Shown one piece after another: positions 1,736 through 62,940 of a stretch of DNA of 64,000 nucleotides (its first letter is position 1; each line of letters opens with the position of its first letter). This DNA is from a virus. The position numbers were made by a program, and so were the translations under genes. Below the pieces are notes generated by a model that was not told the DNA's origin, did not search any database, and saw nothing but the letters and a program-made list of their open reading frames with translations. Location of the stretch: positions 128,001 to 192,000 of IMG/VR virus record IMGVR_UViG_3300045988_119718; one strand, 5' to 3'.

Positions 1736-4573
1736 TCATTTTTTATTTTTATACTCTATCTCATAATGATCGAAATAGTAACCAGCTTTAGGCTTAGTTG
1801 AGATATTAGCTATTCTATTTCTGATAATAGAATACTTAGTATCAGATACTTTATCTACATTAGTTACGTCTATCTTAGCTTCATTAGCTTCAGAATTATC
1901 TATAGTAATATATACAACATCTGGAACAACTTTAGTAGCACCTATAGTAATATCCTCTGTAACTTGAATAGAAGATACTATATCATGCTTAACTCCATCT
2001 TTACCATAATAATACAAGCTACCAGCTATATAACCATCTTTAATAGATTTAACCGATACTCTGCAATATTTATTATAACCAATAGTAAATTTATTAATAC
2101 CTTTGCTATTAGTTCTAGGAATACCTTCAGCAGTAACTGTAATCAATTCATCTATGGTAGCTTCAATGGTAATATTATATCTTATATCAGTAATCTTAGT
2201 AGAATATATTATAGTATCTTCAGTTACATCTGCTTCAGTTATATTCAATACCCCTTTATTAAACCCTTCTGCAATATAAGTTATTTCAGCTCTTATATGA
2301 GGATATCTAGAGTTTACTACAAATGAGGCTGTATGCGATTCTTCTACACCATCCTTTAAATTATAGACAGTAATAATCTGATTTTGTACCTGATTAATAA
2401 TTACATTGTATTCTTTATAAGATGCAGGAGTAGCAGTTAAAGTAGTATTGCTAGTAATAACTGCTTTAGTAACACTAGGTGTACCTGGAGTATATTTATA
2501 CTTTCCATCTATAGCTTCAGTTCTTACTGTAATTAATGAATACTCAGGTACTTCAAAAGATTCAGTATAAGTTTTACCATTACATTCTACTATAATTCTC
2601 TGATTTGTGTATTTAGTTATATTTACTTTATAAATAGGGATATTAGAGTAGTCTATATCTAAAGAACGTTCTTTATGGGTTAGTATTAATCCATTATTTT
2701 CTTTTCTAATAAGTTCGTTTAATTCATTCATTCCATCAGTATCGAATTCAAAATAATGAGCATAGAAGTCATCTACATTATTGTTTGATAATATCATATC
2801 ATTCAAACCTTCATATTTAACATCTACGACTCTATTTATATTTAGATATGAATCTATAAACTTACTTACTATCTTTTCAGCGTTAATATTTACAGTACAA
2901 TTTAAATCCTTAGATATAATTCTTCTTTTATCTACAGTATAAAAGTCATATAAACTTTTATAACCTTTTGGAATTTTACTATCAAACTTAGATTCTCCAA
3001 AATTAAATGTGCCTGTTACTTTATTATTAAATACACCTTCATCGTGTATAAAGAAATATGGATATTGTATTTTACCATTATCATCTTTATTAAAATCAGA
3101 GAAGTCTATATTCTCTTTGGTGTACTTTAAATTTAGAGAAGCTAGTTTAATACCTTCTATATAAATATCCATAAGATTATTACCTAAATCTAAAGCTACT
3201 CCTATAGTATTCCCTTGTTCTGGAGATATAGAAGTTTCTACATTCTCTAGATAATGTAAATCGTTCTTATCAGAATTTTGCGTAGAATGTCTTACTAAAT
3301 GAAATAAATAAAATCCACCAGAATTATCCAATCCATTAGGAATAAAACAATTACCTCTATATAGATTTACTCTAATAGATTCAGTCATTATAGTATTAGG
3401 ATTAGTAACTTTTTCTTGACTAGGTTCACCTACTAAAGGAACACTAGTTATACCCATAGCAATAGGTATACCTACTATTCTATCCTTTAATTCCCCTTCT
3501 TTAACTGTATATTCAAAGTATACTTTATCTGTAGTAGGTATAGGATAATTTATATATACATTACCACCTACTTTATAAGAGTTCGTAATACCATACTTAT
3601 TATCTTCACCTGTTTCAAAATCATAATCAGCTTTGATATAAGTATTAGCATTCATATTATATTTATTACTTTTAGTAGTAATAAATTCTGGATCATCTGT
3701 TACTAAAGTTAAATTATCTGTATCTGGTTCTAATTCATTTTCTACAGATAATTCTCCATCCCATTGGATACTATAGGGGTTAAATATATCACCACTTATA
3801 TAAACATAGCATGGATTATCATCTGACCCTAATTCTGCATGTATTTCTTGGTCAGCCATACGTTCATAATATGCTTTATATAATGAATCATATCCTGGTA
3901 CTGGATGGGTTAATCCATTCTTACCAAAATTTACATATCCTGAAATATGTTTTAAATCATCCATAGAAGCTATTCTAAAATTATAATCTTCTTCTATATA
4001 TTTATAATTTATATTACTATATATACAAAAATACATATTAGGTTGTTCAGCTAAGTTAAATGGAGGTGTATATGAATAAAATGGTTTATCATATTCTCCA
4101 TCATAAGGATACTCATTGTTATAGTTTACAAACAGTTTAATTTTATTAGTATGATAATCTACTGCTACTCCTATAGTGTCTCCGATACCAGGTTTTCTTG
4201 TTCCTATAACACTATTACCATCAGCATCTATGCTGCTACCATCTATATACAGTACATTATCTGGTATTTCATTAGACAGTATTTCATATCTAGGGTCAGT
4301 TACATCATAGAATAAAGATGATATAGCATAATCTGCTATTAATACACCCAATGAAGGCTCTCTACTAATTCCTACATATAACGGAATGTGTTGTATTTTA
4401 TTTATAGGGTAATAATCAGTTATATTTATTTCAAACATTGTTTTATTTTTAATAGGGAGATTAGCTATTAAAAAGAATGGTTTATCATAATCAAAGTGTA
4501 ACCCATCACTAGATAAAACATTATCTAATGGAGAGCTATTTAAATCATATGACTTCATTAATATATTATTCAT
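1736..4573 (-). CDS. large virion/tail-associated structural protein with C-terminal Ig-like repeat(s) of the window-wide '…GYxAGSL…' family
   Basis: 945-aa ORF. The C-terminus carries 'KSIKDGYIAGSLYYYG' and 'KPKAGYYFDHYEI', resembling the repeat found in 11338..12444, 13686..14708, 35505..38612 and 38665..45945. Confidence 0.55.
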   Translation of the reverse strand: MNNILMKSYDLNSSPLDNVLSSDGLHFDYDKPFFLIANLPIKNKTMFEINITDYYPINKIQHIPLYVGISREPSLGVLIADYAISSLFYDVTDPRYEILSNEIPDNVLYIDGSSIDADGNSVIGTRKPGIGDTIGVAVDYHTNKIKLFVNYNNEYPYDGEYDKPFYSYTPPFNLAEQPNMYFCIYSNINYKYIEEDYNFRIASMDDLKHISGYVNFGKNGLTHPVPGYDSLYKAYYERMADQEIHAELGSDDNPCYVYISGDIFNPYSIQWDGELSVENELEPDTDNLTLVTDDPEFITTKSNKYNMNANTYIKADYDFETGEDNKYGITNSYKVGGNVYINYPIPTTDKVYFEYTVKEGELKDRIVGIPIAMGITSVPLVGEPSQEKVTNPNTIMTESIRVNLYRGNCFIPNGLDNSGGFYLFHLVRHSTQNSDKNDLHYLENVETSISPEQGNTIGVALDLGNNLMDIYIEGIKLASLNLKYTKENIDFSDFNKDDNGKIQYPYFFIHDEGVFNNKVTGTFNFGESKFDSKIPKGYKSLYDFYTVDKRRIISKDLNCTVNINAEKIVSKFIDSYLNINRVVDVKYEGLNDMILSNNNVDDFYAHYFEFDTDGMNELNELIRKENNGLILTHKERSLDIDYSNIPIYKVNITKYTNQRIIVECNGKTYTESFEVPEYSLITVRTEAIDGKYKYTPGTPSVTKAVITSNTTLTATPASYKEYNVIINQVQNQIITVYNLKDGVEESHTASFVVNSRYPHIRAEITYIAEGFNKGVLNITEADVTEDTIIYSTKITDIRYNITIEATIDELITVTAEGIPRTNSKGINKFTIGYNKYCRVSVKSIKDGYIAGSLYYYGKDGVKHDIVSSIQVTEDITIGATKVVPDVVYITIDNSEANEAKIDVTNVDKVSDTKYSIIRNRIANISTKPKAGYYFDHYEIEYKNKK

Positions 4574-4651
4574 TCGATACCCTCCTTTTTAAGATAATGT
4601 TAAAATACGCAATATAACCATGTATGGTTATCCATACATGGTTAATGCACA

Positions 4652-5812
4652 TCATAAAGCTAAATTCTGATTACCTGATAAGAATCTTTTAGAATAGTAA
4701 TCTAAATTAAATTCTCTAGTATCTTTATCTAAATATTCTCTACTAATATACTTATCAAAACATTCTTTTTCAATATCATAGATGACTTTTCTAGATATAC
4801 ATTTATTGTATGAGTTAAATATGTATCTAGTTTCTAATGGGCATTCTGTGCAATATGAAACATGATTACACTGAATACATCTATCAATGTTTTCATTTAA
4901 AAGATTAGTATATAGATTAGTAAAATTAGACATTGATTTAGAATCAAACCCAGTAGAAATATTTCCTAGTACTAAATCATTATTATTATCTAATAATCCA
5001 TCTATTTCTTTTAAAAGTAAACATGGATAAATATCCCCATTAGGCACTACCATAAACATCTTTCCGATATATCTGCATTTATGGTCATAAATAAAATCAG
5101 GGTTTATAAATTTATTATAAATCATATATGTAAGATTATCCAAATCAAAATCATACTGATTATACAGCATATATATTTTATGCAGCTGATGTATAAAGAT
5201 AGTTTTAAACTCTTCAGTATTATAATATTTAGAGTATTCATCATTAAAAATAAAATAGTAAGATAACTTCTTACACCCTTGTTCTAGTGCATATTGAATA
5301 GAGTCAGCTAAATAACAAATATTGTCTTTAGTAACTGCTATAGCTATCATAACTTCATTATTATACTTAGAACAGCCTACTTTATCAACAATAGTAGACA
5401 ACTGTTTATCAGTAAGATGAGTTTGGGCTATTTCAGAAGCATGAATACCATCCCATGATATTTTAACTGATTCAGGAGAAATTATCTTTATTAAATCATT
5501 CATAATAAAGTTGTGATTAGTACCATTAGATACTATACCAATCTTAACTGTTGTATCTTTATATCGCTCAATCTTTTTTAACTCTTTGCATAGATTATAA
5601 AGCTCATTAGGATATATAGTTATCTCTCCCCCTAATAAGTTTATATATAACTTAGGGCCGATATTTAAGGTCTTTAAAAACTCTACCAGCTCTTTGCCTT
5701 TATTGAATACATTGTGCCTAGACCTAGAGTTATTAGTCTCAAAGCAATATTTACAATTCAAATTACAATAGTCATTAAATTTTATCCCTAAGAAATCAAT
5801 TTGCTCATACAT
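4652..5812 (-). CDS. radical SAM enzyme with C-terminal SPASM-type auxiliary Cys cluster (peptide-modifying maturase-like)
   Basis: N-terminal 'CNLNCKYC' (CxxxCxxC) and C-terminal 'CIQCNHVSYCTECP'. Overlaps the upstream gene by 8 nt. Confidence 0.8.
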   Translation of the reverse strand: MYEQIDFLGIKFNDYCNLNCKYCFETNNSRSRHNVFNKGKELVEFLKTLNIGPKLYINLLGGEITIYPNELYNLCKELKKIERYKDTTVKIGIVSNGTNHNFIMNDLIKIISPESVKISWDGIHASEIAQTHLTDKQLSTIVDKVGCSKYNNEVMIAIAVTKDNICYLADSIQYALEQGCKKLSYYFIFNDEYSKYYNTEEFKTIFIHQLHKIYMLYNQYDFDLDNLTYMIYNKFINPDFIYDHKCRYIGKMFMVVPNGDIYPCLLLKEIDGLLDNNNDLVLGNISTGFDSKSMSNFTNLYTNLLNENIDRCIQCNHVSYCTECPLETRYIFNSYNKCISRKVIYDIEKECFDKYISREYLDKDTREFNLDYYSKRFLSGNQNLAL

Positions 5813-6992
5813 TTTTCATACCTAATAGCTTAATAAAATTGCTTACTAATTCGGCTTCTTCATCATTTTTCTGTATTGCTTCTATATTATTAATTCTATT
5901 AAAAGTATAATTATCCATCTTAGTAGTGGAGATATCAGTAGATAATGCAAACTTCAAATCTTCTGGTGAAGTATTAATAATCTTACCATTTAAAATTTTT
6001 TCATTATTAATTGCAATAGTAGCATATTTTCTTAACAATACTGCATACTTAATAACTTTAGATCTATCATAATAAGATAATCCTCTAAGAAGAGTCGGCA
6101 TATTGGTAAGACCATCATTGAACAAGTCGATGATCTTGTTCAATAATTTTTTACAAGTTGTAATTCTTTCTGCTCTATTTGTATTACTGATAGAAAATAA
6201 TAAGTACATCAGCATAGTATCACAGAATCTGAGATAACCATAGTTATACTTCTTATATTGATAATCTCCTATTTCACTATATAAGAAATTATCAAGCTTA
6301 TTATACAAATCCTGAAGATCTATTTTAATTCTATTATCTTCTAAAAGTTGATTGATATTATGAATATAGAAGCATACCCAATCACAGAATTGGGAGTTAA
6401 TATTATCTTTATCACTAGAATACTCTAAAGTCTTATTATAATACTTTTTAATAGTATTCATGCATTTGGATGTAATATCTTCTTCTGACATAGAATTTGT
6501 AATAAAGTCTTTAGAGATACTGTCTATAAGAATCTTGTAAGCAATATAGTTATAATAAATAAATTTACTATAGTTTTTAGATTCATGAGATTCAAAATAT
6601 TTAATAAAGGTTTTCATATAAGAGAAATAAACATCTTTTTTATTAGAATCATTAAAATCTATAAATGCAATTAATAATGCTAAATAGTTTTCATCATCTA
6701 ATGCTTTAGTATTATGAATATATTCTTCTCCAATAAAATCTTTACTAATTATTTCAAATTCTTGAAGTAAAATTGGTTCATTTTTTAATGATTCTTCAAT
6801 AGAAGATTTAATATCAGAGTATACTTTCTTATTATCTTCATTTTCTATAAACAAAGAAGAATATTTAATATATTCTTCAAATGTAGTAAAAGAATTATAT
6901 TTATCAGATAGAGCGTTAAGTTTATCTATTACATCAGATACTTTATTCTCTAATATATAATTATAAATTCTTTCTGGTAAAAAATATATCAT
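5805..6992 (-). CDS. hypothetical alpha-helical protein inside the rSAM operon (candidate leader-binding, scaffold or peptidase partner)
   Basis: 395-aa ORF with RBS 'tggaggt'. Tightly packed between two rSAM genes. No motif recognised. Confidence 0.55.
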   Translation of the reverse strand: MIYFLPERIYNYILENKVSDVIDKLNALSDKYNSFTTFEEYIKYSSLFIENEDNKKVYSDIKSSIEESLKNEPILLQEFEIISKDFIGEEYIHNTKALDDENYLALLIAFIDFNDSNKKDVYFSYMKTFIKYFESHESKNYSKFIYYNYIAYKILIDSISKDFITNSMSEEDITSKCMNTIKKYYNKTLEYSSDKDNINSQFCDWVCFYIHNINQLLEDNRIKIDLQDLYNKLDNFLYSEIGDYQYKKYNYGYLRFCDTMLMYLLFSISNTNRAERITTCKKLLNKIIDLFNDGLTNMPTLLRGLSYYDRSKVIKYAVLLRKYATIAINNEKILNGKIINTSPEDLKFALSTDISTTKMDNYTFNRINNIEAIQKNDEEAELVSNFIKLLGMKNV

Positions 6993-6993
6993 A

Positions 6994-8028
6994 TTAAACC
7001 TCCATATCTACATTATTAACCTTATATAACCAATTCTTATATCGCATAATTATTTTATAAAGTTCTGCTAATTCTTCATGATTAAGACTTGCTAAATATT
7101 TAGTAATAAGATTATCATAAACTTTCATAAGTTTACATGTTTCTGGTAAATAATTATCTAACCATTTATCACCAAACTTTAGCATTCTTTCATATCTACA
7201 TCCACCATCGCAAAGGTAAAAATATTTACAATTTTCTATCTGACAATCTTTACTGGTACAACGCTTCTGTATTTTATCAAAGTCTTCATATTTCTGTTCA
7301 GTAAATGCGATAGAAGTGCATGATGACATAGTTTTATCTGTAAGATAAGACTGTTCTTTACCTGCTGCGCATGACTGCATTGGTGCTCTATTAATATATG
7401 CCATTATCTTATTAAGATTTTCTGTATATGGATGCTCTAATGTACCTTCAAAAGTACAATAAAGATTCTCTTCTAAATCTTTAAACCATTGATCGTCATG
7501 GTCTTCACCTCTAGCAATACAGTATTGACCATTAATATGAAACTCTTTATCTAATCTATGGAATAACTTATTAAGTCTAGGTATATCTTTTACATTAGCA
7601 TTATTAATTACAGTCTTAATATCAAAGTGGTCTAGTCCTTCAGATATAGCATAATTAATATTATTCAATACTCTATCGGCAATACTTCTACCAGAAGTAT
7701 CTACTCTAGAATCTTTAAATCCATCCCAAGAAATTTGTAATTCTATATGCCATTTCTTTTGGAACTTAATAAACTCTTTCCAATTAGCCATACTAGAAGT
7801 TATAACTTGAAAGTTCATTTGATCGTGATACTTTTCTAAGGTGTATTCCATTAAGTCTAATCTCATTAATGGTTCTCCACCAAAGAATACCACTCTATTT
7901 GGTTTATTTTGCTCTATACACTCATCTATATCTTTTTCTGTAAGACAATCATTATTATACTTGATATAACAATAATGGCATCTATTAGGACATTGATTGG
8001 TTAAAAATAAATATATTTCTTTATACAT
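6994..8028 (-). CDS. radical SAM/SPASM enzyme (likely true start MYKEIYLF…)
   Basis: 'CPNRCHYC' near the N-terminus and a SPASM-like 'CKYFYLCDGGCRYE' near the C-terminus. Its start overlaps the stop of the upstream precursor gene as TAATG. Confidence 0.8.
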   Translation of the reverse strand: MYKEIYLFLTNQCPNRCHYCYIKYNNDCLTEKDIDECIEQNKPNRVVFFGGEPLMRLDLMEYTLEKYHDQMNFQVITSSMANWKEFIKFQKKWHIELQISWDGFKDSRVDTSGRSIADRVLNNINYAISEGLDHFDIKTVINNANVKDIPRLNKLFHRLDKEFHINGQYCIARGEDHDDQWFKDLEENLYCTFEGTLEHPYTENLNKIMAYINRAPMQSCAAGKEQSYLTDKTMSSCTSIAFTEQKYEDFDKIQKRCTSKDCQIENCKYFYLCDGGCRYERMLKFGDKWLDNYLPETCKLMKVYDNLITKYLASLNHEELAELYKIIMRYKNWLYKVNNVDMEV

Positions 8029-8501
8029 TAGAATCCACCACCACATTTCTTATCATGACATGTACCACCATGGCATGATTGGCAAGATATTTGGCAAGTA
8101 GACTGACAAGATGCTTGACATACAAGTTTGCATGGGCCTGCCCAATAATCATCAGACTTAGAATTCATTTGCTGTAGTAAAAGTTTTGCTATATTATAAA
8201 TAATACCTATATCATTAGCTGTAATTATTTTTTGTTTTTGAACTTTATTGTTGATATCTTTTAATTGATTATAGTTTGCTGAAGTAGTTCTAGAAAGCTG
8301 TGTAATAGTTTTACTATAACCATTACCACCTTTTCTACTTATTTCGTTATCAGTAACAGCATTAATAGAATCTAATTCTGTAATATTTGTAAGCAAACAA
8401 TTTATCGTATTATTAAAGAAATCATTTGTAATGAAATGATCTTTAGCAGGAGAATCTGGTAAATAATATTTTACAGATTGTCTAATTACTTCTGTAGCCA
8501 T
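8028..8501 (-). CDS. Cys-rich precursor-like peptide B: ~127-aa leader plus 30-aa core LVCQASCQSTCQISCQSCHGGTCHDKKCGGGF
   Basis: Start MATEVIRQ… overlaps the stop of precursor A (TAATG). The C-terminal 30 aa are identical to precursor A and contain 8 Cys at 3-4 residue spacing. Confidence 0.6.
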   Translation of the reverse strand: MATEVIRQSVKYYLPDSPAKDHFITNDFFNNTINCLLTNITELDSINAVTDNEISRKGGNGYSKTITQLSRTTSANYNQLKDINNKVQKQKIITANDIGIIYNIAKLLLQQMNSKSDDYWAGPCKLVCQASCQSTCQISCQSCHGGTCHDKKCGGGF

Positions 8502-8911
8502 TAGAAACCACCCCCACATTTCTTATCATGACATGTACCACCATGGCATGATTGGCAAGATATTTGGCAAGTAGACTGACAAGATGCTTGACAGACTAAT
8601 CCACATGTACCATTGTTATTCCAATATTTCCAAGAATGTTCTTGCAATACATTGGAAATAGATTTACATAAATTATATATAGCTTTAGCATCATCTGCTT
8701 TAATAACATCACCTTGACTGATTAAGCTAATAATAGAATGAACAGTTTTAGGAACACCAATTCTAGAATATTCTATAATCTGTTTCTTTCTATATTCGTC
8801 TTTCTCTAATTCATCTATATTAGATAACATAGTCTCAATCATGTTATCATAAATAGTCTTACTAGAATTGACTAAATTATAGTGTATACCATTATTTACT
8901 ATCTTTTCCAT
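8501..8911 (-). CDS. Cys-rich precursor-like peptide A: ~106-aa leader plus the identical 30-aa core
   Basis: 136-aa ORF ending …NGTCGLVCQASCQSTCQISCQSCHGGTCHDKKCGGGF. Immediately downstream of an rSAM/SPASM gene, which it overlaps. Confidence 0.6.
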   Translation of the reverse strand: MEKIVNNGIHYNLVNSSKTIYDNMIETMLSNIDELEKDEYRKKQIIEYSRIGVPKTVHSIISLISQGDVIKADDAKAIYNLCKSISNVLQEHSWKYWNNNGTCGLVCQASCQSTCQISCQSCHGGTCHDKKCGGGF

Positions 8912-10265
8912 TATCTTCTACACCACCTTTATTATTCAATGAATATAAAATCATAGTCATAAGAATTTCAGATTTCTTTCTAAAGTATTCTTCAAATGTA
9001 GGGAATACATTATCAGAACCCAAATTATTAATCATTTCTTTAAGATGAATCAATCTAAGCTTTAATGCAAAAGTATTAGATAAATCCGCAGTATCCATAA
9101 TCATATCGATATACTTCTTAATCTCTAAATTAGTCTTAAGAATATTTAAGTATCTACTTCTAATATTAGTAGCATTAAGAATCTCAGCTTGCTTAATAAT
9201 AATTACATCGGTCATAATCTTATGAAGATCACAATAAGATTGTAAGACTTTATTCTCATCACCATTTTCTCTAAGGTTTTCTTCAGGGCAACCATTCTTA
9301 CAATTTCCTTTAGCTTTACAAGTTTCACATTCTTCTTTTTGATATACTGCTTGTTTTTCTTTTCTATCAGTATGGACTTTGGTTTCATCTACGTCAGTAT
9401 AGATATTACCAATCTTCTGTACTAATTTAATTTCATCCTTAGAAGTTGGTAATTGATGGCATGGATAGATATCCCCATTATAATCAATAGTACACCATTT
9501 ATTCAATCCAATAGGGCAAAGTAAATCATCAGATACTTCTGGTTCCATAACCTGTCTCATAAAGTCATCTATATTCTTAATAGCTATATTTCTCTTAGAA
9601 CCTTCTTCATTAAGTTTATCGACATACATATCCACTAATTCAATATAGTTTTCTTTATAGTCATTCAGTTGTTCTTCTGTCCACTCTACATCAGTTACTG
9701 GCATAGGACAAATAGAATCTATTCCTAAAGTATTTACTAAGTAATCTACACCATCATACATATACTTTGCATCTTCTGGTAAGATAGTCATTCTAGCTTC
9801 AATAAATACTTTCAATCCATTAGTAATAAGAATCTTTAAGTTCTTTACTACTTGATTCCATGAATTAGAACGGTTCTTATCATGAACATGTTTAATACCA
9901 TCAATAGATACTAATAAACCAATATTATTATCATCTACGTATTGAATGAAGTCTTTTGGCAAGAATGATAAGTTAGTAGTCATACCATAATCTACTAATC
10001 TATGATGCTTATTATTATCATCTATAACTGCTTTAATACATTCCCAATTCAATAATGGCTCTCCACCAAAGAAATTGACTTGGAACCTTCTATTAAAACC
10101 AGATAAATCATTATATGCCAGTCTCATAGCATCTACTGCTACTTCTGGCTTCATATATTTTTTATTTTTATCTTTTTCAAAACAATAGATACATTTAAAA
10201 TTACAATCATTAGTAATATCCAATGTGATAGAATCACAATCATAGACTTCTCTAAATGGTTTCAT
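8892..10265 (-). CDS. radical SAM/SPASM enzyme (probable start at the internal ATG MKPFREV…, strong RBS GGAGGA)
   Basis: 'CNFKCIYC' and a SPASM-like 'CETCKAKGNCKNGCPEE'. The track ORF extends to 10322, but the RBS 'ggaggaataatt-ATG' supports a start near 10265. Confidence 0.8.
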   Translation of the reverse strand: MKPFREVYDCDSITLDITNDCNFKCIYCFEKDKNKKYMKPEVAVDAMRLAYNDLSGFNRRFQVNFFGGEPLLNWECIKAVIDDNNKHHRLVDYGMTTNLSFLPKDFIQYVDDNNIGLLVSIDGIKHVHDKNRSNSWNQVVKNLKILITNGLKVFIEARMTILPEDAKYMYDGVDYLVNTLGIDSICPMPVTDVEWTEEQLNDYKENYIELVDMYVDKLNEEGSKRNIAIKNIDDFMRQVMEPEVSDDLLCPIGLNKWCTIDYNGDIYPCHQLPTSKDEIKLVQKIGNIYTDVDETKVHTDRKEKQAVYQKEECETCKAKGNCKNGCPEENLRENGDENKVLQSYCDLHKIMTDVIIIKQAEILNATNIRSRYLNILKTNLEIKKYIDMIMDTADLSNTFALKLRLIHLKEMINNLGSDNVFPTFEEYFRKKSEILMTMILYSLNNKGGVEDNGKDSK

Positions 10266-10350
10266 AATTATTCCTCCTAAAAAATAAATTATTATAATGT
10301 AAAAAAGATTATTAGTAGCCATATAAACGGCTACTAATATTTTCTACTAA

Positions 10351-10962
10351 TTATTCTTCATCATCATCATCTTTATGCTCACGAATATAAATAGCATTCC
10401 CTCTGATGGTATCTCCACCAGAACGCCATTCATCTCCATCTTTAAGAATAGCTAAATCCCATCTAGTAATACCATCACTAGGCTGTGGATCAGACCATAC
10501 TGCATATGGTTCATGAAGATACAATCCATCTTCATTATCAGCAGCTTCACCATGAGTCATAATTCTATCTAAATCAATAGTTAAATCTAAAGCATCTGCT
10601 GCTGCTTCAGTCAATGCACATAAAGACCAAATCTGAGCATCAGTTGGGGGGTATGGCCCTAAGTCATATCTACCATCTGGCCAGCACATAGCATTATAAG
10701 CACAACAAAGAGCTATTGCAATAGATCCAGAGTTTCTCTTATATGTAGCAGCTACAGGCTCATTTACATCGCCAGTATAATGAATATTACCTTCACCATC
10801 AATACAGAAATTATAGTCATCATAAACGTTCGTATAATTATCAGCAGTCCAGTGTAAATAAATTTTTGCGTCTCTATCATACGCTTTAGCGTTTTCCCAA
10901 ATATAAGAATATGCATCAGAAATAATTTGCTTAGCTTCTTCTATAGATACTATTCTATCCAT
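10351..10962 (-). CDS. N-acetylmuramoyl-L-alanine amidase (Amidase_2/PGRP fold, XlyA/PlyL-like catalytic domain); endolysin or virion lysin
   Basis: 'IYLHWTAD', 'NFCIDGEGNIH', 'NSGSIAIALC' and 'IMTHGE' match the conserved blocks of family-2 amidases. No cell-wall-binding domain, acidic C-terminus. Locally higher GC than the flanks. Confidence 0.55.
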   Translation of the reverse strand: MDRIVSIEEAKQIISDAYSYIWENAKAYDRDAKIYLHWTADNYTNVYDDYNFCIDGEGNIHYTGDVNEPVAATYKRNSGSIAIALCCAYNAMCWPDGRYDLGPYPPTDAQIWSLCALTEAAADALDLTIDLDRIMTHGEAADNEDGLYLHEPYAVWSDPQPSDGITRWDLAILKDGDEWRSGGDTIRGNAIYIREHKDDDDEE

Positions 10963-11297
10963 TCTTTTCCCTTTCTTTTTGTTAATAGATTATATAAAGC
11001 ATTTTTCATAGCAGAATAAGAAGAATAAGTTTGTGTATAGATAGCATCTTTGTTTTCAACTGTAATAGTACTAATTTTAGACTTTTTATTGTAAGTTTTA
11101 TATTCAGTATTATTTACTTTTTTGAATAATGCATTAGGATAATTAAAGAATACATCACATGGATTCGTATTAATAATAAATTGATTTAGTGATAAAACGA
11201 TGTCATTTAGTGTAAGTTCATTATACTTAGATAGTATAAACTTAACCCAAACATAGTTATCATTATCATTCTTTACTTCAATATAGAAATATTTCAT
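10950..11297 (-). CDS. hypothetical protein
   Basis: 115-aa ORF. Confidence 0.45.
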   Translation of the reverse strand: MKYFYIEVKNDNDNYVWVKFILSKYNELTLNDIVLSLNQFIINTNPCDVFFNYPNALFKKVNNTEYKTYNKKSKISTITVENKDAIYTQTYSSYSAMKNALYNLLTKRKGKEWIE

Positions 11298-11337
11298 TAT
11301 TATTTATACCCCTAATCTATACACAAACTAAAATAAA

Positions 11338-12444
11338 TTATCTCATATTATTCATATCTAAAATATAGTTAATCACTGGAGCAATAGCAGCAGCTTTAGC
11401 TTCTGCTTTCTCTTCTTCTTCTTTTTTAACGTATTCTTCTGTTTTCCAGTTCTGAGGAATTGTAGTATCTTTATAAACTTCGTTTACAAATTTACCACCA
11501 TTGATAGTAATAGAAGCTGTATCTTTATTGGTTACACCAGAAAGTTCAATATCGAAAGTACCATTCTCAATCGTAATCTTAGCTGATTCAGTCCATTTAG
11601 TACTTGTTCCTGGAAGAGTTTCAGGAGCTGAGGAAGATTTATCATATTCTACAGCACCTACTACTTTACCAGTGAAGTCCTTACCAAAAGTAATTACTGG
11701 AGCAGCATTATAATACTTCTTTAATAATCCATAATAGCAGTCAAATGCTACTCTACGGAATCCATCAGTATTAGGTGCATTGATAATTGTATTACCTTTG
11801 CAAGTTAATCCACCATAGTTATTGGATACTGCATATGCACACTGAGTTCCTTTAGAAATATCTACAGTTACATCTTCTAATACTAATTCAGAATAGTTCT
11901 GAATAAACATTTTGCAATTTGCAAAGTTAGTAGTAAGAGTACCATTCTTAAAAGTAACTTTACAACCTTCCATAAGTCTAAATGCAATAGTCTGATATTT
12001 AACACTAGCACCTACTAATGGAAGTTTAGAAACATTTACGGTATGACCATTTAAATCAAATGTAATGTATCTATCTTGAGTATGGTCATTTTCTACACCA
12101 ACTTGAGTACCACAAGTATCAATATCTTCTAAAAGAGTAATTGTAGTTTCAGTCTTAGGTTTAGCTGCATTTACTGCTTCTTGGAAAGTAGCATATTTTA
12201 CACCATTAGATTCAATTACATATTTTACAGCTTCAGTAGCACTAAATTCAACAGTAGTATCTGATTCTGCTACAGTATAAGTCTCTTTATTTAAAGTACC
12301 AGCTTTATAGCCTTCACTAGCTACAATAGAAGCAATGAGTTCTTTACCAGTTTCTACAGTATCACCATCATGATAAGTTTTAGAATCTAAATCTGAAACT
12401 GTAATAACCTGATTAGCAGATTGAATAATTTTTAAAGTTGCCAT
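11338..12444 (-). CDS. tail-fibre-like protein with N-terminal Ig-like repeat domain
   Basis: The N-terminus 'KIIQSANQVITVSDLDSKTYHDGDTVETGKELIASIVASEGYKAGTLN' matches the repeat consensus of the family. Confidence 0.55.
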   Translation of the reverse strand: MATLKIIQSANQVITVSDLDSKTYHDGDTVETGKELIASIVASEGYKAGTLNKETYTVAESDTTVEFSATEAVKYVIESNGVKYATFQEAVNAAKPKTETTITLLEDIDTCGTQVGVENDHTQDRYITFDLNGHTVNVSKLPLVGASVKYQTIAFRLMEGCKVTFKNGTLTTNFANCKMFIQNYSELVLEDVTVDISKGTQCAYAVSNNYGGLTCKGNTIINAPNTDGFRRVAFDCYYGLLKKYYNAAPVITFGKDFTGKVVGAVEYDKSSSAPETLPGTSTKWTESAKITIENGTFDIELSGVTNKDTASITINGGKFVNEVYKDTTIPQNWKTEEYVKKEEEEKAEAKAAAIAPVINYILDMNNMR

Positions 12445-12918: not shown

Positions 12919-13674
12919 TTATGATACTATAGTGTATTGTGATGCAGATAATCCAGCACCATCGAATCCTGCTGGTGGATTCTTAATCTTAACATTTCTA
13001 AGTTTATGAGAATAGTTAAACATTTCATTCCAATGCTTGCATGATTTCATATCAATTACACCTTTAATGGTAGTAAGATTATAGCATTTATAGAACATCA
13101 AGACCATATCAGTTACTTTAGAAGTATCAAAATTAGATATGTTCAATGTGGTAAGATTATCACAGTTAGAGAACATAGAGGCCATACTTTCTACATTAGA
13201 AGTATCGAAGTTGGATAAGTCTAACGATGTAAGATTACGACAATCCCAAAACATACCTTCCATAGTATACACATTAGAAGTATCAAAGCTAGATACATCT
13301 AATGAAATAAGTTTAGAGCAGTTAGAGAACATAAATTCCATATCTATTGCATTAGAAGTATCGAAATTAGATACGTTTATTGAAGTGAGTTTAGGGTGAC
13401 CATAGGCATTTTTAAACATACCTTCCATAGTATATACTTTAGAAGTACTAAAATTAGATAAGTCTAATGAAGTAAGATTATCAGTGCAGTGACCAAACAT
13501 ATAGCTCATACTCATTACAAAACCATCACATGTAACTGTAGCTTGACCTGGGACTGATGTATCTATTTTATCCACACAGGATTTATCATCCCAATTATCA
13601 TTATACCATGGACTAGAACCTTTAGCTATAAAAATTTGATCTTTGAAGGCTGCATAGCTAACAGTAATAGTCAT
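12919..13674 (-). CDS. DUF285 / 'Liste_lipo_26' 26-residue LRR-like repeat protein (surface-binding module)
   Basis: At least 5 tandem repeats of 'LTSLDLSNFDTSNVxSMxxMFxxCxNL'. Confidence 0.65.
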   Translation of the reverse strand: MTITVSYAAFKDQIFIAKGSSPWYNDNWDDKSCVDKIDTSVPGQATVTCDGFVMSMSYMFGHCTDNLTSLDLSNFSTSKVYTMEGMFKNAYGHPKLTSINVSNFDTSNAIDMEFMFSNCSKLISLDVSSFDTSNVYTMEGMFWDCRNLTSLDLSNFDTSNVESMASMFSNCDNLTTLNISNFDTSKVTDMVLMFYKCYNLTTIKGVIDMKSCKHWNEMFNYSHKLRNVKIKNPPAGFDGAGLSASQYTIVS

Positions 13675-13685
13675 ATCACTATTAA

Positions 13686-14708
13686 TTACCCCCCCCCACT
13701 AACGTTCAATGCTCCTGGTTTATACCCACTATCAGCTATAACTTCAGCTTCATATGTAGTTCCCCTTGGACAAGTAAAGGTAGAAGTATGATCGGTTCCT
13801 CCATTCTTTTGAGGTGTATAAACGTGAATAGTCTGGTTAGCAGACTGAACAATAGTTACTGTAGCATTAGCTACTGTTGCAGCTTTAGCACTAATAATCA
13901 TATTGCTATTAAATGTACCACCCTTGGTATTTGGTGTACCTGCTATATAATTATTAGCAGCTATAACTTCTACTTCATAAGTAGTACCTACAGAGCAGGT
14001 GAATGATGAAGTGTGGTCAGTACCACCAGATTTTCTAGGTGTATATACATGGATAGTCTGATTATCACTTTGAACTATAGTTATTTTAGCATAGGATATA
14101 GCAGGGTTAGCATTAATAGACATATCACTATTAATTGTACCATTCTCATTAACATTTAATGACCCTGCTGTATAACCATTTTCAGCTATAACTTCAGCTT
14201 CATATGTAGTTCCCCTTGGACAAGTAAATGTAGAGGTATGATCTGTTCCACCAGACTTCTTAGGAGTATACACATGAATAGTTTGATTAGCAGATTGGGT
14301 AATAGTTACAGTAGCATTAGATTTTGTAGCAGAAGTAGCATTGATAGTTTTATTTTTAGTAAATGTACCACTTCTGCTAATATTTAGTGTTCCTGCCTTA
14401 TAACTATTTTCAGCTATAACTTCAGCTTCATAAGTAGTTCCTGCTAGACAGGTAAAGGTAGAAGTATAATCTATACCACCAATCTTTTTCGGTACATATA
14501 CATGAATAGTTTGATTATCTGACTGATTAATAGTAATTGTAATATTCTTTTTTTCATTATGAGTTTTCTTATAAAGGTCATCTATTAGATCTTGTAATTT
14601 CTTCCAAGTAGGGTCATCTTTAGAGATTCTTTTTAGAAGAATATTTTGAAGAGAAGCATCTAAATCTTCTAATCTTATTCTTCTAATTTCCTTTTTGTTA
14701 TCATTCAT
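13686..14708 (-). CDS. tail-fibre-like protein with 4 tandem Ig-like repeats; ends GGG-stop inside a G9 tract
   Basis: Four repeats of 'QSANQTIHVYTPKKSGGTDHTSTFTCPRGTTYEAEVIAENGYTAGSLN'. Confidence 0.65.
   Translation of the reverse strand: MNDNKKEIRRIRLEDLDASLQNILLKRISKDDPTWKKLQDLIDDLYKKTHNEKKNITITINQSDNQTIHVYVPKKIGGIDYTSTFTCLAGTTYEAEVIAENSYKAGTLNISRSGTFTKNKTINATSATKSNATVTITQSANQTIHVYTPKKSGGTDHTSTFTCPRGTTYEAEVIAENGYTAGSLNVNENGTINSDMSINANPAISYAKITIVQSDNQTIHVYTPRKSGGTDHTSSFTCSVGTTYEVEVIAANNYIAGTPNTKGGTFNSNMIISAKAATVANATVTIVQSANQTIHVYTPQKNGGTDHTSTFTCPRGTTYEAEVIADSGYKPGALNVSGGG
13689..13697 (-). repeat. homopolymeric G9 tract immediately before the stop codon; a +1 G would fuse the gene in frame to the downstream DUF285 gene
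   Basis: 'taccccccccact' on the + strand. Hand translation of the 10-G variant reads GGGVINSDMTITVSYAAF…, in frame with the start of 12919..13674. Confidence 0.85.
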
Positions 14709-30394: not shown

Positions 30395-30450
30395 AAAATC
30401 CTCCTTTTTATCAATACAATATTATAGTAAAGTTGGAGGTTATAAATACA

Positions 30451-30488
30451 AAAAAAAATAAAAGGTCGTAAGACCTTTTATTTTTAAA
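30451..30488 (-). terminator. rho-independent terminator 'aaaaggtcgtaagacctttt' plus U-tract (minus strand)
   Basis: One of three near-identical terminators (also at 31058..31092 and 33805..33838). Confidence 0.6.
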
Positions 30489-30502
30489 TGATGAATCAAA
30501 GC

Positions 30503-30970: not shown

Positions 30971-31057
30971 GATGTTCCTCCTTTAGGAAAATGGTAGAAT
31001 TATAGTCCACCTTGATTCACTATTATATTATATAGCTAAGTATTATTTTAAGAATTA

Positions 31058-31092
31058 CAAAAAATAAAAGGTCTTATGACCTTTTATTTCTA
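31058..31092 (-). terminator. rho-independent terminator 'aaaaggtcttatgacctttt'
   Basis: Seen directly. Confidence 0.6.
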
Positions 31093-31100
31093 ACGATGCA

Positions 31101-33742: not shown

Positions 33743-33804
33743 ATGTATACCTCCTTTTTTTAATACATAAATTATTAAAATGTTTTGTTTATTTTGAATA
33801 AGGT

Positions 33805-33838
33805 AAAAAATAAAAGGTCGAAAGACCTTTTATTTTCA
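33805..33838 (-). terminator. rho-independent terminator 'aaaaggtcgaaagacctttt'
   Basis: Seen directly. Confidence 0.6.
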
Positions 33839-33846
33839 GATGATGA

Positions 33847-35504: not shown

Positions 35505-38500
35505 TTATGTAATATTTTCTGTACCCGATGTTCCGGCATCTTTACCGCCGCCAAGGATATACCATGAAGCAACTACATTAGCAACTTTAACTGTTATGTC
35601 TTCGGTTAAAGTGTATGTAATATCAGATGTTGCATAGAAATACTTTACACTTTTATCTAAATTAGTAATAGTACATGGGATTTTAGTATCATTTATATAC
35701 ATATCGATAGTTTCAATACTGTCATATCCATTATCATCAGTTGGGGTTAATTTAAATCGTACTCTATATAATCTCCCATAACCCCATTTACTAGTTTGAT
35801 ATTCACTCTTATCAATTAATACATATAATGCAGCATCTGTATTGGTTAATTGAATTACATTTATAGTATATAAAATACCATCAGCAGATCCAGCATATAC
35901 TTCATCGTCTGATAATAGTATACCACTAGTTTTATTTAAAGTACCGGCATTATAACCTACATCAGGTTTAATACCTGCTGTCCATTTAGTACCATAATCT
36001 AATTTAACTGAAGAGGTATAAATTTTACCATTAGCCATTACAGCGATAGTTTGATGCTCAGACTGAGTAATAGTTAAAGTGAATTGCTTTATAGTAGCAG
36101 CTGTAGCACTAATACTGTCATTACCTGTTAAAGTACCACTAGTTTTATTTAAAGTACCAGCATTATAGCCTTCTGCTGGTTCTATAGCTACAGTATAAGT
36201 AGTTCCATATGGTAAAGCTACAGTATTGGTATATTTATTACCATTAGCTGTAACAGTAATAGTCTGATGCTCAGATTGAGCTATTGTAAGAGTACATTCA
36301 ATCTTCTTAGCTGCTGATTGAGCATAGATATATGTATCGCTAGTTAAAGTACCACTAGGTAAGTTTACCTCTCCAGCAGTGTATCCTGTTACACCTTCTG
36401 TATATGCTACCCATGTAGAACCATATGGGAAAGATTTAGTACCAGTTGTCCAAGTAATAACATGATTAATATCATCTGGATAAGTACATGTTACTGTAGT
36501 TATAGTATTTTCTGTCTGTTTTATAATTATTCTATAATTGATCTTATTAGCAGCACTAGTAGCATATACCGAATCATCTCCAGTTATAGTACCACTAGCC
36601 TTATTTAAAGTACCAGCGGTATAACCAGTATCTGCTGTAATAGTAGCAGTCCATTTAGTCCCATATGGCAAAGATACACTATTAGTATAAGTTTTACCAT
36701 TAGCATGAACTATGATAGTCTGATGTTCAGATTGAGTAATAGTTAAAGTAAATTGCTTTATAGTAGCAGGACTAGCACTTATAGAATCATTGCCAGTTAT
36801 AGTGTCACTAGTTTTAGACAAAGTACCAGCAGTATAACCAGTATCTGCTGTAATAGTAGCAGTCCATTTAGTCCCATATGGCAAAGATACACTATTAGTA
36901 TAAGTTTTACCATTAGCATGAACTGTGATAGTTTGATGATTACTTTGGTTAATACTAAGAATATAACCATAAGCTGTAGCATTAGTAGCTGAAATAGTAT
37001 GGTTACTATTGATATCGTTTATTTCAAAAGAATTATATAGTTTACCATCAAGTGTTATATATCCGCTTTTATATCCAATAGATGGAGTTATCTTTATATC
37101 GAGAGAATCTCCTTCTGTAGTCTCAAATGTGCTGGTATAATTTTGGTTATTTAATCTTGAATATACGGTAATAGTCTGATTGCTGGTCTGATTAATAGTA
37201 ATAGTATATTTCTTTTTAGCTATATATGTAGCTTCTGTAGCAAATATTGTATAATCCTGACTAATGTTATTAATAGAAGTATAATTCAATTTACCTGCTG
37301 CATAATTAGAATTAGTAGATACAATAGTACAAGTTATACTATCTCCTGACTCTACTTTAAAGCTATTAGTATATATAATACCATTATGGTATACTCTTAT
37401 TATTTGATTTTCTGATTGTTGTATAGTAATAGTATGGGTTCTTAAAGACGGTGGAACTATACCATTTTTATCATGTACATAATCATAGCTATTTTTATCA
37501 TCTATATCTTTAAATCCAGATTTAGTAGTACCAGCAAATGGTAAATAATATAAATCTTCCTTATTATTATGATCAAGATTAACTAATAAATGCGGTTCTG
37601 TAAGATACCAATCGTCATCATCATAGTCTGACAACGGTGTTATTTCCTTATTACCATCTAAATATTGTAAATAAAATACACCATCATTTATCTTATGTGC
37701 TGGTGTTATCTTGATTTCACTATCTTCTTTTAAGATAAAACTTCTTTTTATAGGAATATTAGAATCTATATCCACTGGTGGATATATCAATCTTCCTGGT
37801 ACATAAGTATTATCTTTAGGTGTAATAGTTATTCTGTATTCTGTAAGATAATCTAAACTTACAGCACTAGTATAAGTAGTTCCATTAGCTATTACTCTAA
37901 CGGCTTCATTATCCATTGTAGGTATAGTTATTTTATATTTCTTTTTAGTAGCATTAGTGCAAGTTATATTTAAACTAAAATCATTACTATTAACTAACGT
38001 ATTAGAGGCATTTAGCTTATACATAGTTAATTCAGTATGGTTAGAAGTGCCTTTATTATACCCATATATAGGATTGATTTCTATGCTGTATTCAGTATCA
38101 TAAGTAACATAAAAAGATTTACTTTTATTACCAGATTTCTGTATCGTATACATAGAATAAAAAGTTAAAGTTTGATTAATAGTAGCCGGTAAAGTAATTT
38201 TACACATCTTAGGTTCTGCATCTTTATCTACAGACAAATGTTTATTCTTATACATTATACCACTAGTAGAATTTAATGCTCCTTTGATGGTATAACCAGT
38301 ATCTGCTACTATTTCAGCATCAAATCTATCACCTATCTTACATTTAATGATTCTAGTATTTTCGTATACAGTTTCATTATTTATAGTAACTTTAATATGC
38401 TGATGATTATATTGATCTATTAATATATATAATGCATTGTTTATACTTTCACTAGCATATATAGAAATATCACTTTCTAGTATTCCATGTTCTTTATTTA

Positions 38501-38612
38501 ATCGACCTGATATATAGCCTTCATCTGCTTCTATAGAAGCAGACCATTCTGTCTTATTAGGTCGCTTTTGTGAGGAAGTATATTTTGAATGATCGCTCAT
38601 TTTACCCTCCAT
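35505..38612 (-). CDS. large tail-fibre-like protein with at least 8 tandem Ig-like repeats
   Basis: Repeats such as 'ITQSEHQTIIVHANGKTYTNSVSLPYGTKWTATITADTGYTAGTL'. Two copies are nearly identical at the nucleotide level (~36580-36960). Confidence 0.65.
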   Translation of the reverse strand: MEGKMSDHSKYTSSQKRPNKTEWSASIEADEGYISGRLNKEHGILESDISIYASESINNALYILIDQYNHQHIKVTINNETVYENTRIIKCKIGDRFDAEIVADTGYTIKGALNSTSGIMYKNKHLSVDKDAEPKMCKITLPATINQTLTFYSMYTIQKSGNKSKSFYVTYDTEYSIEINPIYGYNKGTSNHTELTMYKLNASNTLVNSNDFSLNITCTNATKKKYKITIPTMDNEAVRVIANGTTYTSAVSLDYLTEYRITITPKDNTYVPGRLIYPPVDIDSNIPIKRSFILKEDSEIKITPAHKINDGVFYLQYLDGNKEITPLSDYDDDDWYLTEPHLLVNLDHNNKEDLYYLPFAGTTKSGFKDIDDKNSYDYVHDKNGIVPPSLRTHTITIQQSENQIIRVYHNGIIYTNSFKVESGDSITCTIVSTNSNYAAGKLNYTSINNISQDYTIFATEATYIAKKKYTITINQTSNQTITVYSRLNNQNYTSTFETTEGDSLDIKITPSIGYKSGYITLDGKLYNSFEINDINSNHTISATNATAYGYILSINQSNHQTITVHANGKTYTNSVSLPYGTKWTATITADTGYTAGTLSKTSDTITGNDSISASPATIKQFTLTITQSEHQTIIVHANGKTYTNSVSLPYGTKWTATITADTGYTAGTLNKASGTITGDDSVYATSAANKINYRIIIKQTENTITTVTCTYPDDINHVITWTTGTKSFPYGSTWVAYTEGVTGYTAGEVNLPSGTLTSDTYIYAQSAAKKIECTLTIAQSEHQTITVTANGNKYTNTVALPYGTTYTVAIEPAEGYNAGTLNKTSGTLTGNDSISATAATIKQFTLTITQSEHQTIAVMANGKIYTSSVKLDYGTKWTAGIKPDVGYNAGTLNKTSGILLSDDEVYAGSADGILYTINVIQLTNTDAALYVLIDKSEYQTSKWGYGRLYRVRFKLTPTDDNGYDSIETIDMYINDTKIPCTITNLDKSVKYFYATSDITYTLTEDITVKVANVVASWYILGGGKDAGTSGTENIT

Positions 38613-62290: not shown

Positions 62291-62697
62291 CCCTTTCTTT
62301 TTTCAACTTCATAAAAATGTATAGATTCTTTTCTATCTTTATAAGTTGTATTTCAATGTATTCTAATAGAAATATGGCTATTCAGTAGTAAAAAATAAAA
62401 CGATTTTTCTTATAACTTCAGTGTAAAAACAAGGGTATGAGATTGATTCTCATACCCATATCTTACCTCGTATATTGCTTTCATACAAAAAATGCTATAT
62501 CTCAAAATATAGTATCGTATTCCTATTAAAAATAATAGTCATAGGAGCATGGTTTAAAAATACAACATTACATACTTCCTATAGAAAAATGATTTTTTCA
62601 TGGATTTTTACCTAAATATCAATAATTTCTGTCTAAATGCGAATCATTCGCATTTGTTAGAAAAAGTTTATAATTATAAACTGAAAAAATCGCTAAT

Positions 62698-62940
62698 TTT
62701 TTAGTTAAAAATTAAAAATCAACTAACATACCCTTTTTTCGCTATTTTCGTATTCCTATTAGTTTTAATGGAAATATGACTTTCTCATACCTTGCTAAAA
62801 ATTTAGTTAAAATTGAAAAACCAATTAACATACACTTTTTTAGCCATATTCGTATTCCCATTGGTTCTAATGGAAATACGACTTTTCAATTTTTTCTAAA
62901 AATTTAGTTAAAATTGAAATACCAATTAACATGTGGTCAC
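62698..62940. repeat. ~100-nt direct tandem repeat, 2.4 copies, ~80% identity (candidate iterons)
   Basis: The unit 'aatttagttaaaattgaaaaaccaattaacata…cgtattcccattggttctaatggaaatacgact…' is repeated. It is flanked by the TTTATAA palindromes 'gtttataattataaac' at 62656 and 'tttataattagtttataa' at 62960. Confidence 0.7.

Follow-up and report, generated by a model that had tools for sequence, protein, structure and literature searches.

Gene conversion is known to drive concerted evolution in bacteria, with the tufA/tufB genes and the ribosomal RNA operons as examples. Short modified peptides have been described from other systems: precursors of the Nif11 and nitrile-hydratase-like leader peptide (NHLP) types and the prochlorosins exceed 100 amino acids (aa), are modified in a short C-terminal part only and are encoded by several genes per genome. 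In ranthipeptide systems (PapB/PapA, freyrasin; CteB/SCIFF) a SPASM-type radical S-adenosylmethionine (radical-SAM) enzyme is encoded beside its Cys-rich substrate. Here we analyze a viral locus with likenesses to both kinds of system. It lies in a stretch of 64,000 nucleotides (nt), hereafter the window, that covers positions 128,001 to 192,000 of IMG/VR virus record IMGVR_UViG_3300045988_119718. Two tandem genes, A and B, end there in the same Cys-rich tail and are flanked by genes for three radical-SAM enzymes (rSAM1, rSAM2 and rSAM3). Comparison with a sister contig shows that the 3' end of gene B has recently overwritten that of gene A, and we assign this explanation as a whole a probability of roughly 0.78.

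An earlier note on this DNA had pointed to a near-identical block of approximately 95 nt at the 3' ends of the tandem genes that includes the TAATG stop/start junction. This is borne out: a direct repeat at 8026-8120 and 8499-8593 (start-to-start spacing 473 nt) matches in 93 of 95 bases and contains a perfect run of 80 nt (8041-8120 and 8514-8593). Both mismatches (8034/8507 and 8040/8513) are synonymous and concern third positions of Gly codons. The repeat spans the last 30 codons of genes A and B (the core, CQASCQSTCQISCQSCHGGTCHDKKCGGGF) and the TAATG in which their TAA stop overlaps the ATG of the next gene; this TAATG reads as CATTA on the plus strand (8026-8030 and 8499-8503). At the peptide level the identity reaches two residues (LV) beyond the repeat, so that 32 residues are identical. 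An exact repeat of 80 nt cannot be due to chance, and no other long repeat of at least 90% identity is found in the window, the remaining repeat families reaching at most 84%. The earlier note had also stated that a similarity confined to a run of Cys and Gln codons, short of the junction, would speak against its reading. The similarity does cross the junction, and low complexity is rejected as its cause because the same codons are freely variable at synonymous sites among relatives.

The direction of the transfer can be read from the closest relative, sister contig L110, which has 212 differences from the window over 10.2 kb (97.9% identity). The core of gene B shows 0 differences at 78 sites between both contigs. 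The core of gene A encodes the same peptide in L110, with 11 differing sites that are all synonymous and all located within 8531-8588; at each of the 11 the window carries the B state. At the background rate approximately 1.2 differences would be expected in these 58 nt, and a Poisson estimate for the observed number is about 6e-8. In L111, L113, L114 and L115, too, the core of gene A is unconverted. Because the B core of L110 is unchanged and its A core is in the pre-conversion state, B is the donor and A the recipient: in the lineage of the window B overwrote A by recent non-reciprocal recombination (gene conversion). The tract measures 58 nt at minimum (8531-8588) and 80 nt at maximum (8514-8593), bounded by retained A/B differences at 8594 and 8513. 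Not a single amino acid was changed by the event, since selection already held both tails identical as peptides.

Gene conversion acting on the core, as the earlier note had suggested, is thus shown for the 80-nt run, but not for the TAATG junction. A tract including TAATG was first suggested by the observation that, among the first eight genomes, only the window has TAATG after gene A. This candidate is contradicted by L110 to L115, in which the junction form GGG GGT GGT TTC TAA TG and the two Gly-codon mismatches are already present; the junction is therefore older than the recent tract and lies outside it. In more distant relatives gene A is followed by TAA, a GGAGG Shine-Dalgarno spacer and ATG. 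The junction may have originated through an older conversion or through a 13-nt deletion.

Genes A and B are old tandem paralogues. The N-terminal parts (leaders) had been described as completely diverged, yet they are homologous, with 26% protein identity (E=1e-4 in a leader-only comparison) and a common profile that fits both. Each leader has its own clear orthologues across related phage contigs: between genomes these differ at 8-11% of the nucleotide positions, against approximately 50% between the A and B leaders. Synteny is unchanged in the 15 loci fetched, which represent nine distinct sequences. A recent duplication of the core, the other origin considered in the earlier note, is rejected as all these relatives have both genes, each with its own orthologous leader.

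Conversion is recurrent in this phage group, with independent events that differ in tract length. In L001 the tails of A and B show 0 differences over 87 sites and the similarity continues a few bases past the stop, whereas both tails differ from those of the window at 16 of 78 sites (10 synonymous, at least five residues affected). Over the core, A and B thus differ at 0 of 78 sites in the window as well as in L001, against 16 of 78 between these genomes. In L010 the identical 3' stretch of A and B is approximately 60 nt long. Taken over eight genomes, synonymous A-B differences amount to 5.2 within genomes versus 9.6 across genomes (permutation p=2e-4). The synonymous difference between A and B is 0 over approximately 15 sites in the window and L001, and 0.26 to 0.67 in most other genomes.

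Selection acts on the tails too. Between the A and B cores of L110, L111 and L113 there are 12 to 14 synonymous differences, yet the encoded peptides are identical; nonsynonymous core divergence is low in every genome, and in L006, L008 and L009 the synonymous divergence between A and B is near saturation. Given the peptide identity in the first three genomes and the saturation in the last three, purifying or co-evolutionary selection and episodic conversion are both at work. Some observations do weigh against conversion as the explanation. In L006, L008 and L009 selection alone could explain the similarity of the tails. Also, the converted allele was recovered from a single assembly, with L116 identical to the window, and scans for exact matches to it in the metagenomes of the Joint Genome Institute (JGI) and in IMG/VR yielded nothing.

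It might be argued, then, that purifying selection is sufficient throughout: the peptide has to be identical and no recombination took place. That selection can hold the peptides identical is seen in the genomes with 12 to 14 synonymous differences, and the low nonsynonymous divergence everywhere fits this as well. Selection on the peptide cannot, however, equalise 11 synonymous sites, and the unconverted state of L110 refutes a selection-only account of the 80-nt tract unless the allele of the window is an assembly error. A constraint on the nucleotides themselves is not supported either, as relatives vary freely at the synonymous sites of the tract and an Rfam scan of 4000-12000 gave no match. 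Selection alone is therefore very improbable. The same holds for an assembly error, in which the assembler would have threaded the B core into gene A. Recovery of the allele from a single assembly, without exact matches elsewhere in the JGI and IMG/VR scans, is what such an error would produce. Nonetheless, the longest run that the A and B cores of an unconverted genome have in common inside the tract is at most 17 nt. The name of the matching contig (k119_143398, assembly ENA ERZ27229725) contains k119, which we take to denote an assembly word of 119 bases; if so, a de Bruijn assembler had no way of passing from A into B and returning to A, and every word spanning the A leader and the B-like core must come from reads. 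Moreover, gene A keeps its own Gly codons (GGG GGT GGT) 3' of the tract, and independent assemblies show a like phenomenon elsewhere (L001/L080 in IMG/VR, L010/L011 in two ENA samples). We consider an artefact highly unlikely and retain gene conversion from B to A.

The window (approximately 28% G+C) contains a gene for a phage multisubunit RNA-polymerase beta subunit and an open reading frame of 2426 aa. Its relatives are located on contigs of 230-270 kb, which indicates that it is part of a jumbo phage genome; sample names point to human gut metagenomes, and the lineage comprises more than 150 near-identical contigs. As in tufA/tufB-type concerted evolution, paralogues within a genome are closer than orthologues, synonymous sites are homogenised and the tract limits are sharp. 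The phage case differs in that the tract takes up only some 80 nt towards the 3' end of genes with approximately 50% divergence elsewhere, in a lytic-type jumbo phage, and in that the event was caught between contigs that are 97.9% identical. The mechanism is ordinary, but it is caught unusually cleanly: the repeat is a datable short-tract gene conversion in a jumbo phage for which a sister genome resolves donor, recipient and tract limits. Compared to Nif11, NHLP and prochlorosin precursors the polarity is reversed. There a conserved leader is combined with hypervariable cores, whereas in the phage genes the tail is conserved and homogenised while the N-terminal domains diverge, which is unusual for a system resembling those of peptides that are synthesized on the ribosome and modified after translation (RiPPs). 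A Pfam scan of A and B found no sequence similarity to Nif11 or NHLP.

The tail extends far beyond these two genes. Its motif is C-x3-C-Q-x2-C-Q-x2-C-Q-x2-C-Q-x-C-x4-C-H-x-[QK]-x-C-G, followed by one to four residues and preceded by a conserved helix and then [YW]W.x.NG.C. A profile of A and B gave 106 matches at E<=1e-3 among 1.84 billion representative proteins. Most of them cover only the last 70 or so profile positions, at the C-terminus of proteins of 71 to 950 aa. According to a motif filter, the tail forms the C-terminus of 84 representatives from outside the phage group of the window. Exactly four tetrads are present in 98 of the 106 motif-bearing proteins (A/B set plus representatives), and in a few members (P0025 of 323 aa, P0023 and P0044) the tetrads are expanded to 8, 13, 14 or 36 units. 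These expanded members occasionally contain C-E-x-x or C-M-x-x, and their stretches with Cys at every fourth residue measure up to approximately 144 aa. At the second tetrad position Q is counted 355 times, M 17 times and E 11 times; A, K and N also occur, which we take to stem mainly from a non-Q first tetrad. The single Asp of the tail is Asn in about half of the family. Many members have a common N-terminal module, MANRG.V.Y...NLNERDSIN, of which A and B carry a diverged form, and in one long member a galactose-binding domain is present, with a match to a phage tail-protein PHROG.

Other searches returned little. A word-indexed protein search with the tail alignment gave seven short fragments only. 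The DNA pattern for TCH[DN]Q[NK]CG occurs in 17 stretches of 185,579 bacterial and archaeal species genomes. Only one of these encodes a true tail; its 5-kb contig was placed in the bin of a Solobacterium metagenome-assembled genome, which is a weak hint at best to the host. Against GenBank phages neither megablast with the operon nor tblastn with the tail found a match, although in the latter case the low-complexity filter may hide one. No Pfam or NCBIfam model exists for the tail and a literature search found nothing on this family. Apparently the tail marks a large family of phage proteins that is so far undescribed. Two tail-bearing genes are present in one relative (L065:4612-6177). In the first of them (521 aa) the tail end is degenerate (YYTAHNQNSGGWV), other residues standing in for two cysteines, and this gene may be a copy in decay.

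The neighbourhood of the tail gene is conserved as well. A scan of IMG/VR identified 124 stretches that encode a relative, of which 80 loci were kept, many on contigs of 230-267 kb. Among the 69 loci with upstream sequence, an rSAM1-type gene is found directly upstream in 52, ending within 150 nt of the tail gene, while in a further 16 one small gene (140 aa) lies in between. The rSAM1-type gene is thus within approximately 450 nt upstream in 68 of 69; in the last locus (L065) it precedes the degenerate first tail gene. Genes of the rSAM2 and rSAM3 types follow downstream of the tail gene in relatives. In some relatives three tandem rSAM1-type genes (406, 440 and 450 aa; L086:581-4452) are located upstream of a single tail-bearing protein of 572 aa.

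rSAM1 contains the radical-SAM motif CX3CX2C (CNFKCIYC) and the SPASM motif CX2CX5CX3C (CETCKAKGNCKNGC), scoring 54.5 bits with the Pfam model Radical_SAM and 18.2 bits with SPASM, just under the cut-off of 21.5. By these two cluster motifs it would count as a radical-SAM/SPASM peptide maturase in the general sense. rSAM3 scores 20.2 bits with Pfam SPASM, and rSAM2 has a variant Cys-rich C-terminus. The best NCBIfam match of rSAM1 is PapB (E 1.6e-61), but none of the three enzymes passes the 340-bit cut-off of this model (NF047865: 208.3 bits for rSAM1, 78.3 for rSAM3 and 49.5 for rSAM2). For rSAM3 the best NCBIfam matches are PapB and the CXXX-repeat maturase, both far under the cut-offs. The best solved structure for rSAM1 is CteB (5WGG, E 1e-26). 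The alignment starts at CteB residue 98, so that the N-terminal 95 to 97 aa have no counterpart, and rSAM1 has a C-terminal extension of approximately 100 aa. In CteB the N-terminal 97 or so residues are the site of the leader-recognition domain, the RiPP recognition element.

Against this background the differences from the described systems become clear. The SCIFF peptide models TIGR03973 and PF13165 give 14.8 and 14.3 bits for gene A (cut-offs 50 and 27), the SCIFF maturase model TIGR03974 gives 131 bits for rSAM1 (cut-off 425), and A and B, with 136 and 157 aa, are much longer than the SCIFF peptide of approximately 45 residues. Together with the missing counterpart of the first 97 or so residues of CteB, this sets the phage module apart from CteB/SCIFF. 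The CXXX-repeat target (TIGR04117) and its maturase (TIGR04115) are alike in that Cys occurs at every fourth residue beside a SPASM radical-SAM enzyme. Here gene B scores 18.3 bits (cut-off 50), and rSAM1 and rSAM3 score 99.1 and 57 (cut-off 350); the phage tail has four fixed tetrads (98 of 106) and a distinctive C-x4-C-H-x-Q-x-C-G end. We know of no described chemistry for the TIGR04117 family. CxxxC spacing, which would place the cysteines on one face of a helix, also resembles that of the Cys-lined helical metal-storage proteins such as Csp1. To our knowledge Csp proteins are not associated with radical-SAM enzymes, and no sequence or structural match was obtained for the phage tail genes. 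PapB makes several thioethers from Cys to side chains in a repeated motif. Acidic residues or the C-terminal carboxylate are its acceptors as reported to date; in Asp or Glu the bond from Cys goes to the carbon that neighbours the carboxylate (PMC12373016). In the phage tail the invariant partner residue is Gln, and as CX3D/E motifs are missing the acceptor here would have to differ from the Asp or Glu of PapB. Further differences from ranthipeptide systems are the presence of three radical-SAM enzymes and the setting in a phage genome. Judged by sequence, the system appears to work like the ranthipeptide, SCIFF and CXXX-repeat systems, and it belongs to no curated family, as it reaches none of the cut-offs and lacks the PapA-type CX3D/E motif.

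We infer that the tail is a substrate that receives thioether cross-links. It would form a fixed 8-Cys module for the adjacent SPASM radical-SAM enzyme(s), which most likely install cross-links of the thioether (ranthipeptide-like) type. As a candidate acceptor we speculatively propose the invariant Gln, whose only substitutes (Glu or Met) occur in expanded repeats. With both genes supplying the same enzymes and yielding an identically modified end, selection would keep the tails alike, and the resulting similarity could supply the homology needed for conversion. The conserved helix that precedes the tail, common to A, B and the whole family, is more likely to be the docking element than the divergent N-terminal parts. 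That two leaders deliver one core to different maturases, as had been proposed, does not agree with the relatives: those with a single tail gene retain rSAM1-, rSAM2- and rSAM3-type genes, and so does L004, whose B homologue has no tail.

Several points count against a cross-linked tail. All curated substrate models fail on it (14.8 versus 50 for SCIFF, 18.3 versus 50 for the CXXX-repeat target), the enzymes remain below every curated equivalog cut-off, and the core has one Asp and no CX3[DE] motif of the PapA kind. A helix with Cys at every fourth residue could be a metal-binding element instead. Finally, type and positions of the cross-links, and the modification of the tail as such, are read from sequence patterns.

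What becomes of the tail is a separate matter. The earlier note had regarded A and B as precursors with a long leader and a core, and this is questionable, because the tail is also found at the end of proteins as long as 950 aa, among them one with a galactose-binding domain. As classical RiPP precursors, A and B would lose their N-terminal 100 to 120 aa as a leader, and a cross-linked tail of approximately 30 aa, bioactive as a bacteriocin-like or signalling peptide, would be released at lysis. A short Cys-rich C-terminus beside SPASM radical-SAM enzymes of the thioether clade, the weak SCIFF-like signal and the tightly coupled operon all fit this picture, and long protein-derived leaders are known from Nif11 and NHLP precursors. 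The six operon genes, however, showed no peptidase or exporter domain, and rSAM1 has no region matching the N-terminal 97 or so residues of CteB. Across the family the tail is conserved and the rest variable, the opposite of most RiPP families. The tail also ends proteins of very different size (71-950 aa), among them the one whose galactose-binding domain matches a phage tail-protein family, and the B homologue of L004 and L005 retains its N-terminal domain without any tail. Release of a peptide is therefore doubtful. Alternatively, the tail may stay on phage proteins for good and serve as their functional end, for instance at the tip of virion fibre or decoration proteins, where it would be cross-linked or bind metal and the N-terminal domains would be the working parts. 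The modular build of the family, with conserved N- and C-terminal modules and variable inserts, argues for this, as do the tetrad expansions from 8 to 36 units, the tail-less B homologue retained in L004, and the position of the operon among baseplate/tail-fibre-like and endolysin-like genes (Gp10_C, tail-fibre PHROGs, Amidase_2). On the other hand, GenBank phages include no cultured relative, A and B are small and without a recognisable binding domain, and the AlphaFold2 (AF2) model of B is of low confidence (predicted local distance difference test, pLDDT, 57) and without structural match. We tentatively consider a tail that stays on the protein somewhat more likely than a cleaved RiPP.

The N-terminal domain appears to have a role of its own. 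In L004 and L005, the most divergent relative, the B homologue (120 aa; L004:6421-6783, same position in L005) keeps this domain and ends just before the Cys tail (...TKSDWR*), with gene A and the three radical-SAM genes intact, which suggests that the domain functions without the tail. Neither A nor B matches Pfam, NCBIfam or PHROGs above threshold. In the model of B a beta-hairpin is combined with three long helices, the tail being disordered, and Foldseek against the PDB gave no match at E<0.001.

A bolder and rather unlikely generalisation is that in this 8-Cys (C-Q-x-x)n family, found almost only on phage contigs, radical-SAM/SPASM enzymes build a ladder of thioether rings, with Gln (or Glu/Met) as acceptor, on full-length phage proteins including fibre-like ones with carbohydrate-binding inserts. 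If true, radical cross-linking by enzymes would concern structural or effector proteins of phages rather than small secreted peptides. The module of three radical-SAM enzymes and a Cys-rich putative substrate is in any case widespread in uncultivated jumbo phages of the human microbiome. Should the enzymes modify the tails, these phages carry their own radical cross-linking chemistry, possibly a new type of phage protein maturation, and QxxC / CQxx would be a new substrate motif for thioether-forming enzymes. The system is experimentally tractable.

Features of the locus are collected in Table 1. All genes of the region are located on the minus strand, and A and B belong to a translationally coupled operon of six genes in the order rSAM1, A, B, rSAM2, helical protein, rSAM3. 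The stop of rSAM1 overlaps the start of gene A by 20 nt and the start of rSAM2 is coupled to the stop of gene B via TAATG. For the next gene, the sole G-rich, Shine-Dalgarno-like sequence is that of the Gly-Gly-Gly-Phe codons at the gene ends (GGN GGN GGN TTC; window 8499-8520 and 8026-8047), located 5-16 nt upstream of its overlapping ATG. In relatives with tails ending in RW or GW a separate GGAGG spacer takes the place of these codons.

Table 1. Coordinates of the operon and of the converted repeat in the window.
Feature	Position	Strand	Basis or remark
Terminator-like hairpin, 13-bp stem plus T run, between amidase gene and rSAM1	10310..10339	-	Sequence scan
rSAM1, 457 aa, start MKPF, radical-SAM/SPASM	8892..10265	-	Family profile and structure-database matches
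Gene A, 136 aa	8501..8911	-	N-terminal helical domain of about 100 aa, C-terminal 8-Cys tail
Gene B, 157 aa, start MATEV	8028..8501	-	Paralogue of A; longer N-terminal domain, same 32-aa C-terminus
rSAM2, 344 aa, radical-SAM	6994..8028	-	CX3CX2C at residues 13-20; Cys-rich C-terminal region
All-helical protein, 395 aa, N-terminus M.YFLPERIY	5805..6992	-	Conserved in module
rSAM3, 386 aa, radical-SAM/SPASM	4652..5812	-	NCBIfam matches below cut-offs
Recipient copy of perfect 80-nt repeat (maximum conversion tract; minimum 8531-8588)	8514..8593	-	Comparison with L110
Donor copy of 80-nt tract, identical in window and L110	8041..8120	-	Sequence comparison
Gene A 3' end (GGG GGT GGT TTC), TAA and gene B ATG	8499..8513	-	13 of 15 bases like B/rSAM2 junction

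The hairpin in front of rSAM1 is probably the upstream boundary of the operon. Around it (10300-10399) the window and L110 show 13 differences, the background being about 2 per 100 nt. A promoter scan yielded no more sites than in shuffled sequence. The protein of 395 aa belongs to no known family and phmmer against the PDB gave nothing. Its AF2 model shows an all-helical, helical-repeat (solenoid-like) fold at low to moderate confidence (pLDDT 63), for which Foldseek returned generic helical-repeat proteins only (E>0.01). Upstream of the operon are an Amidase_2 endolysin-like gene and genes resembling those of baseplate and tail fibres (Gp10_C, tail-fibre PHROGs).

Elsewhere in the window, a conserved intergenic element with hairpin AAAAGGTC....GACCTTTT and a T run is present in three copies (30440-30494, 31046-31100 and 33792-33846), probably as a common terminator or terminator/promoter cassette between minus-strand genes. 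Three direct repeats of 40 nt (62690-62932), spaced approximately 101 nt and 80-95% identical, lie in an apparently non-coding stretch and could be regulatory or iteron-like. Internal repeats of about 225 nt and 213 nt are seen at 13697-14599 and 35921-37217, in proteins of 340 aa (13686-14708) and 1035 aa (35505-38612), respectively. A 57-nt motif is common to both, which suggests Ig-like domains common to putative fibre or decoration proteins. A protein of 251 aa in the tail-fibre region (12919-13674) carries DUF285 / BspA-type leucine-rich repeats (E=1.8e-35); it is possibly a host-adhesion protein and, as such, a clue to a host with similar surface proteins.

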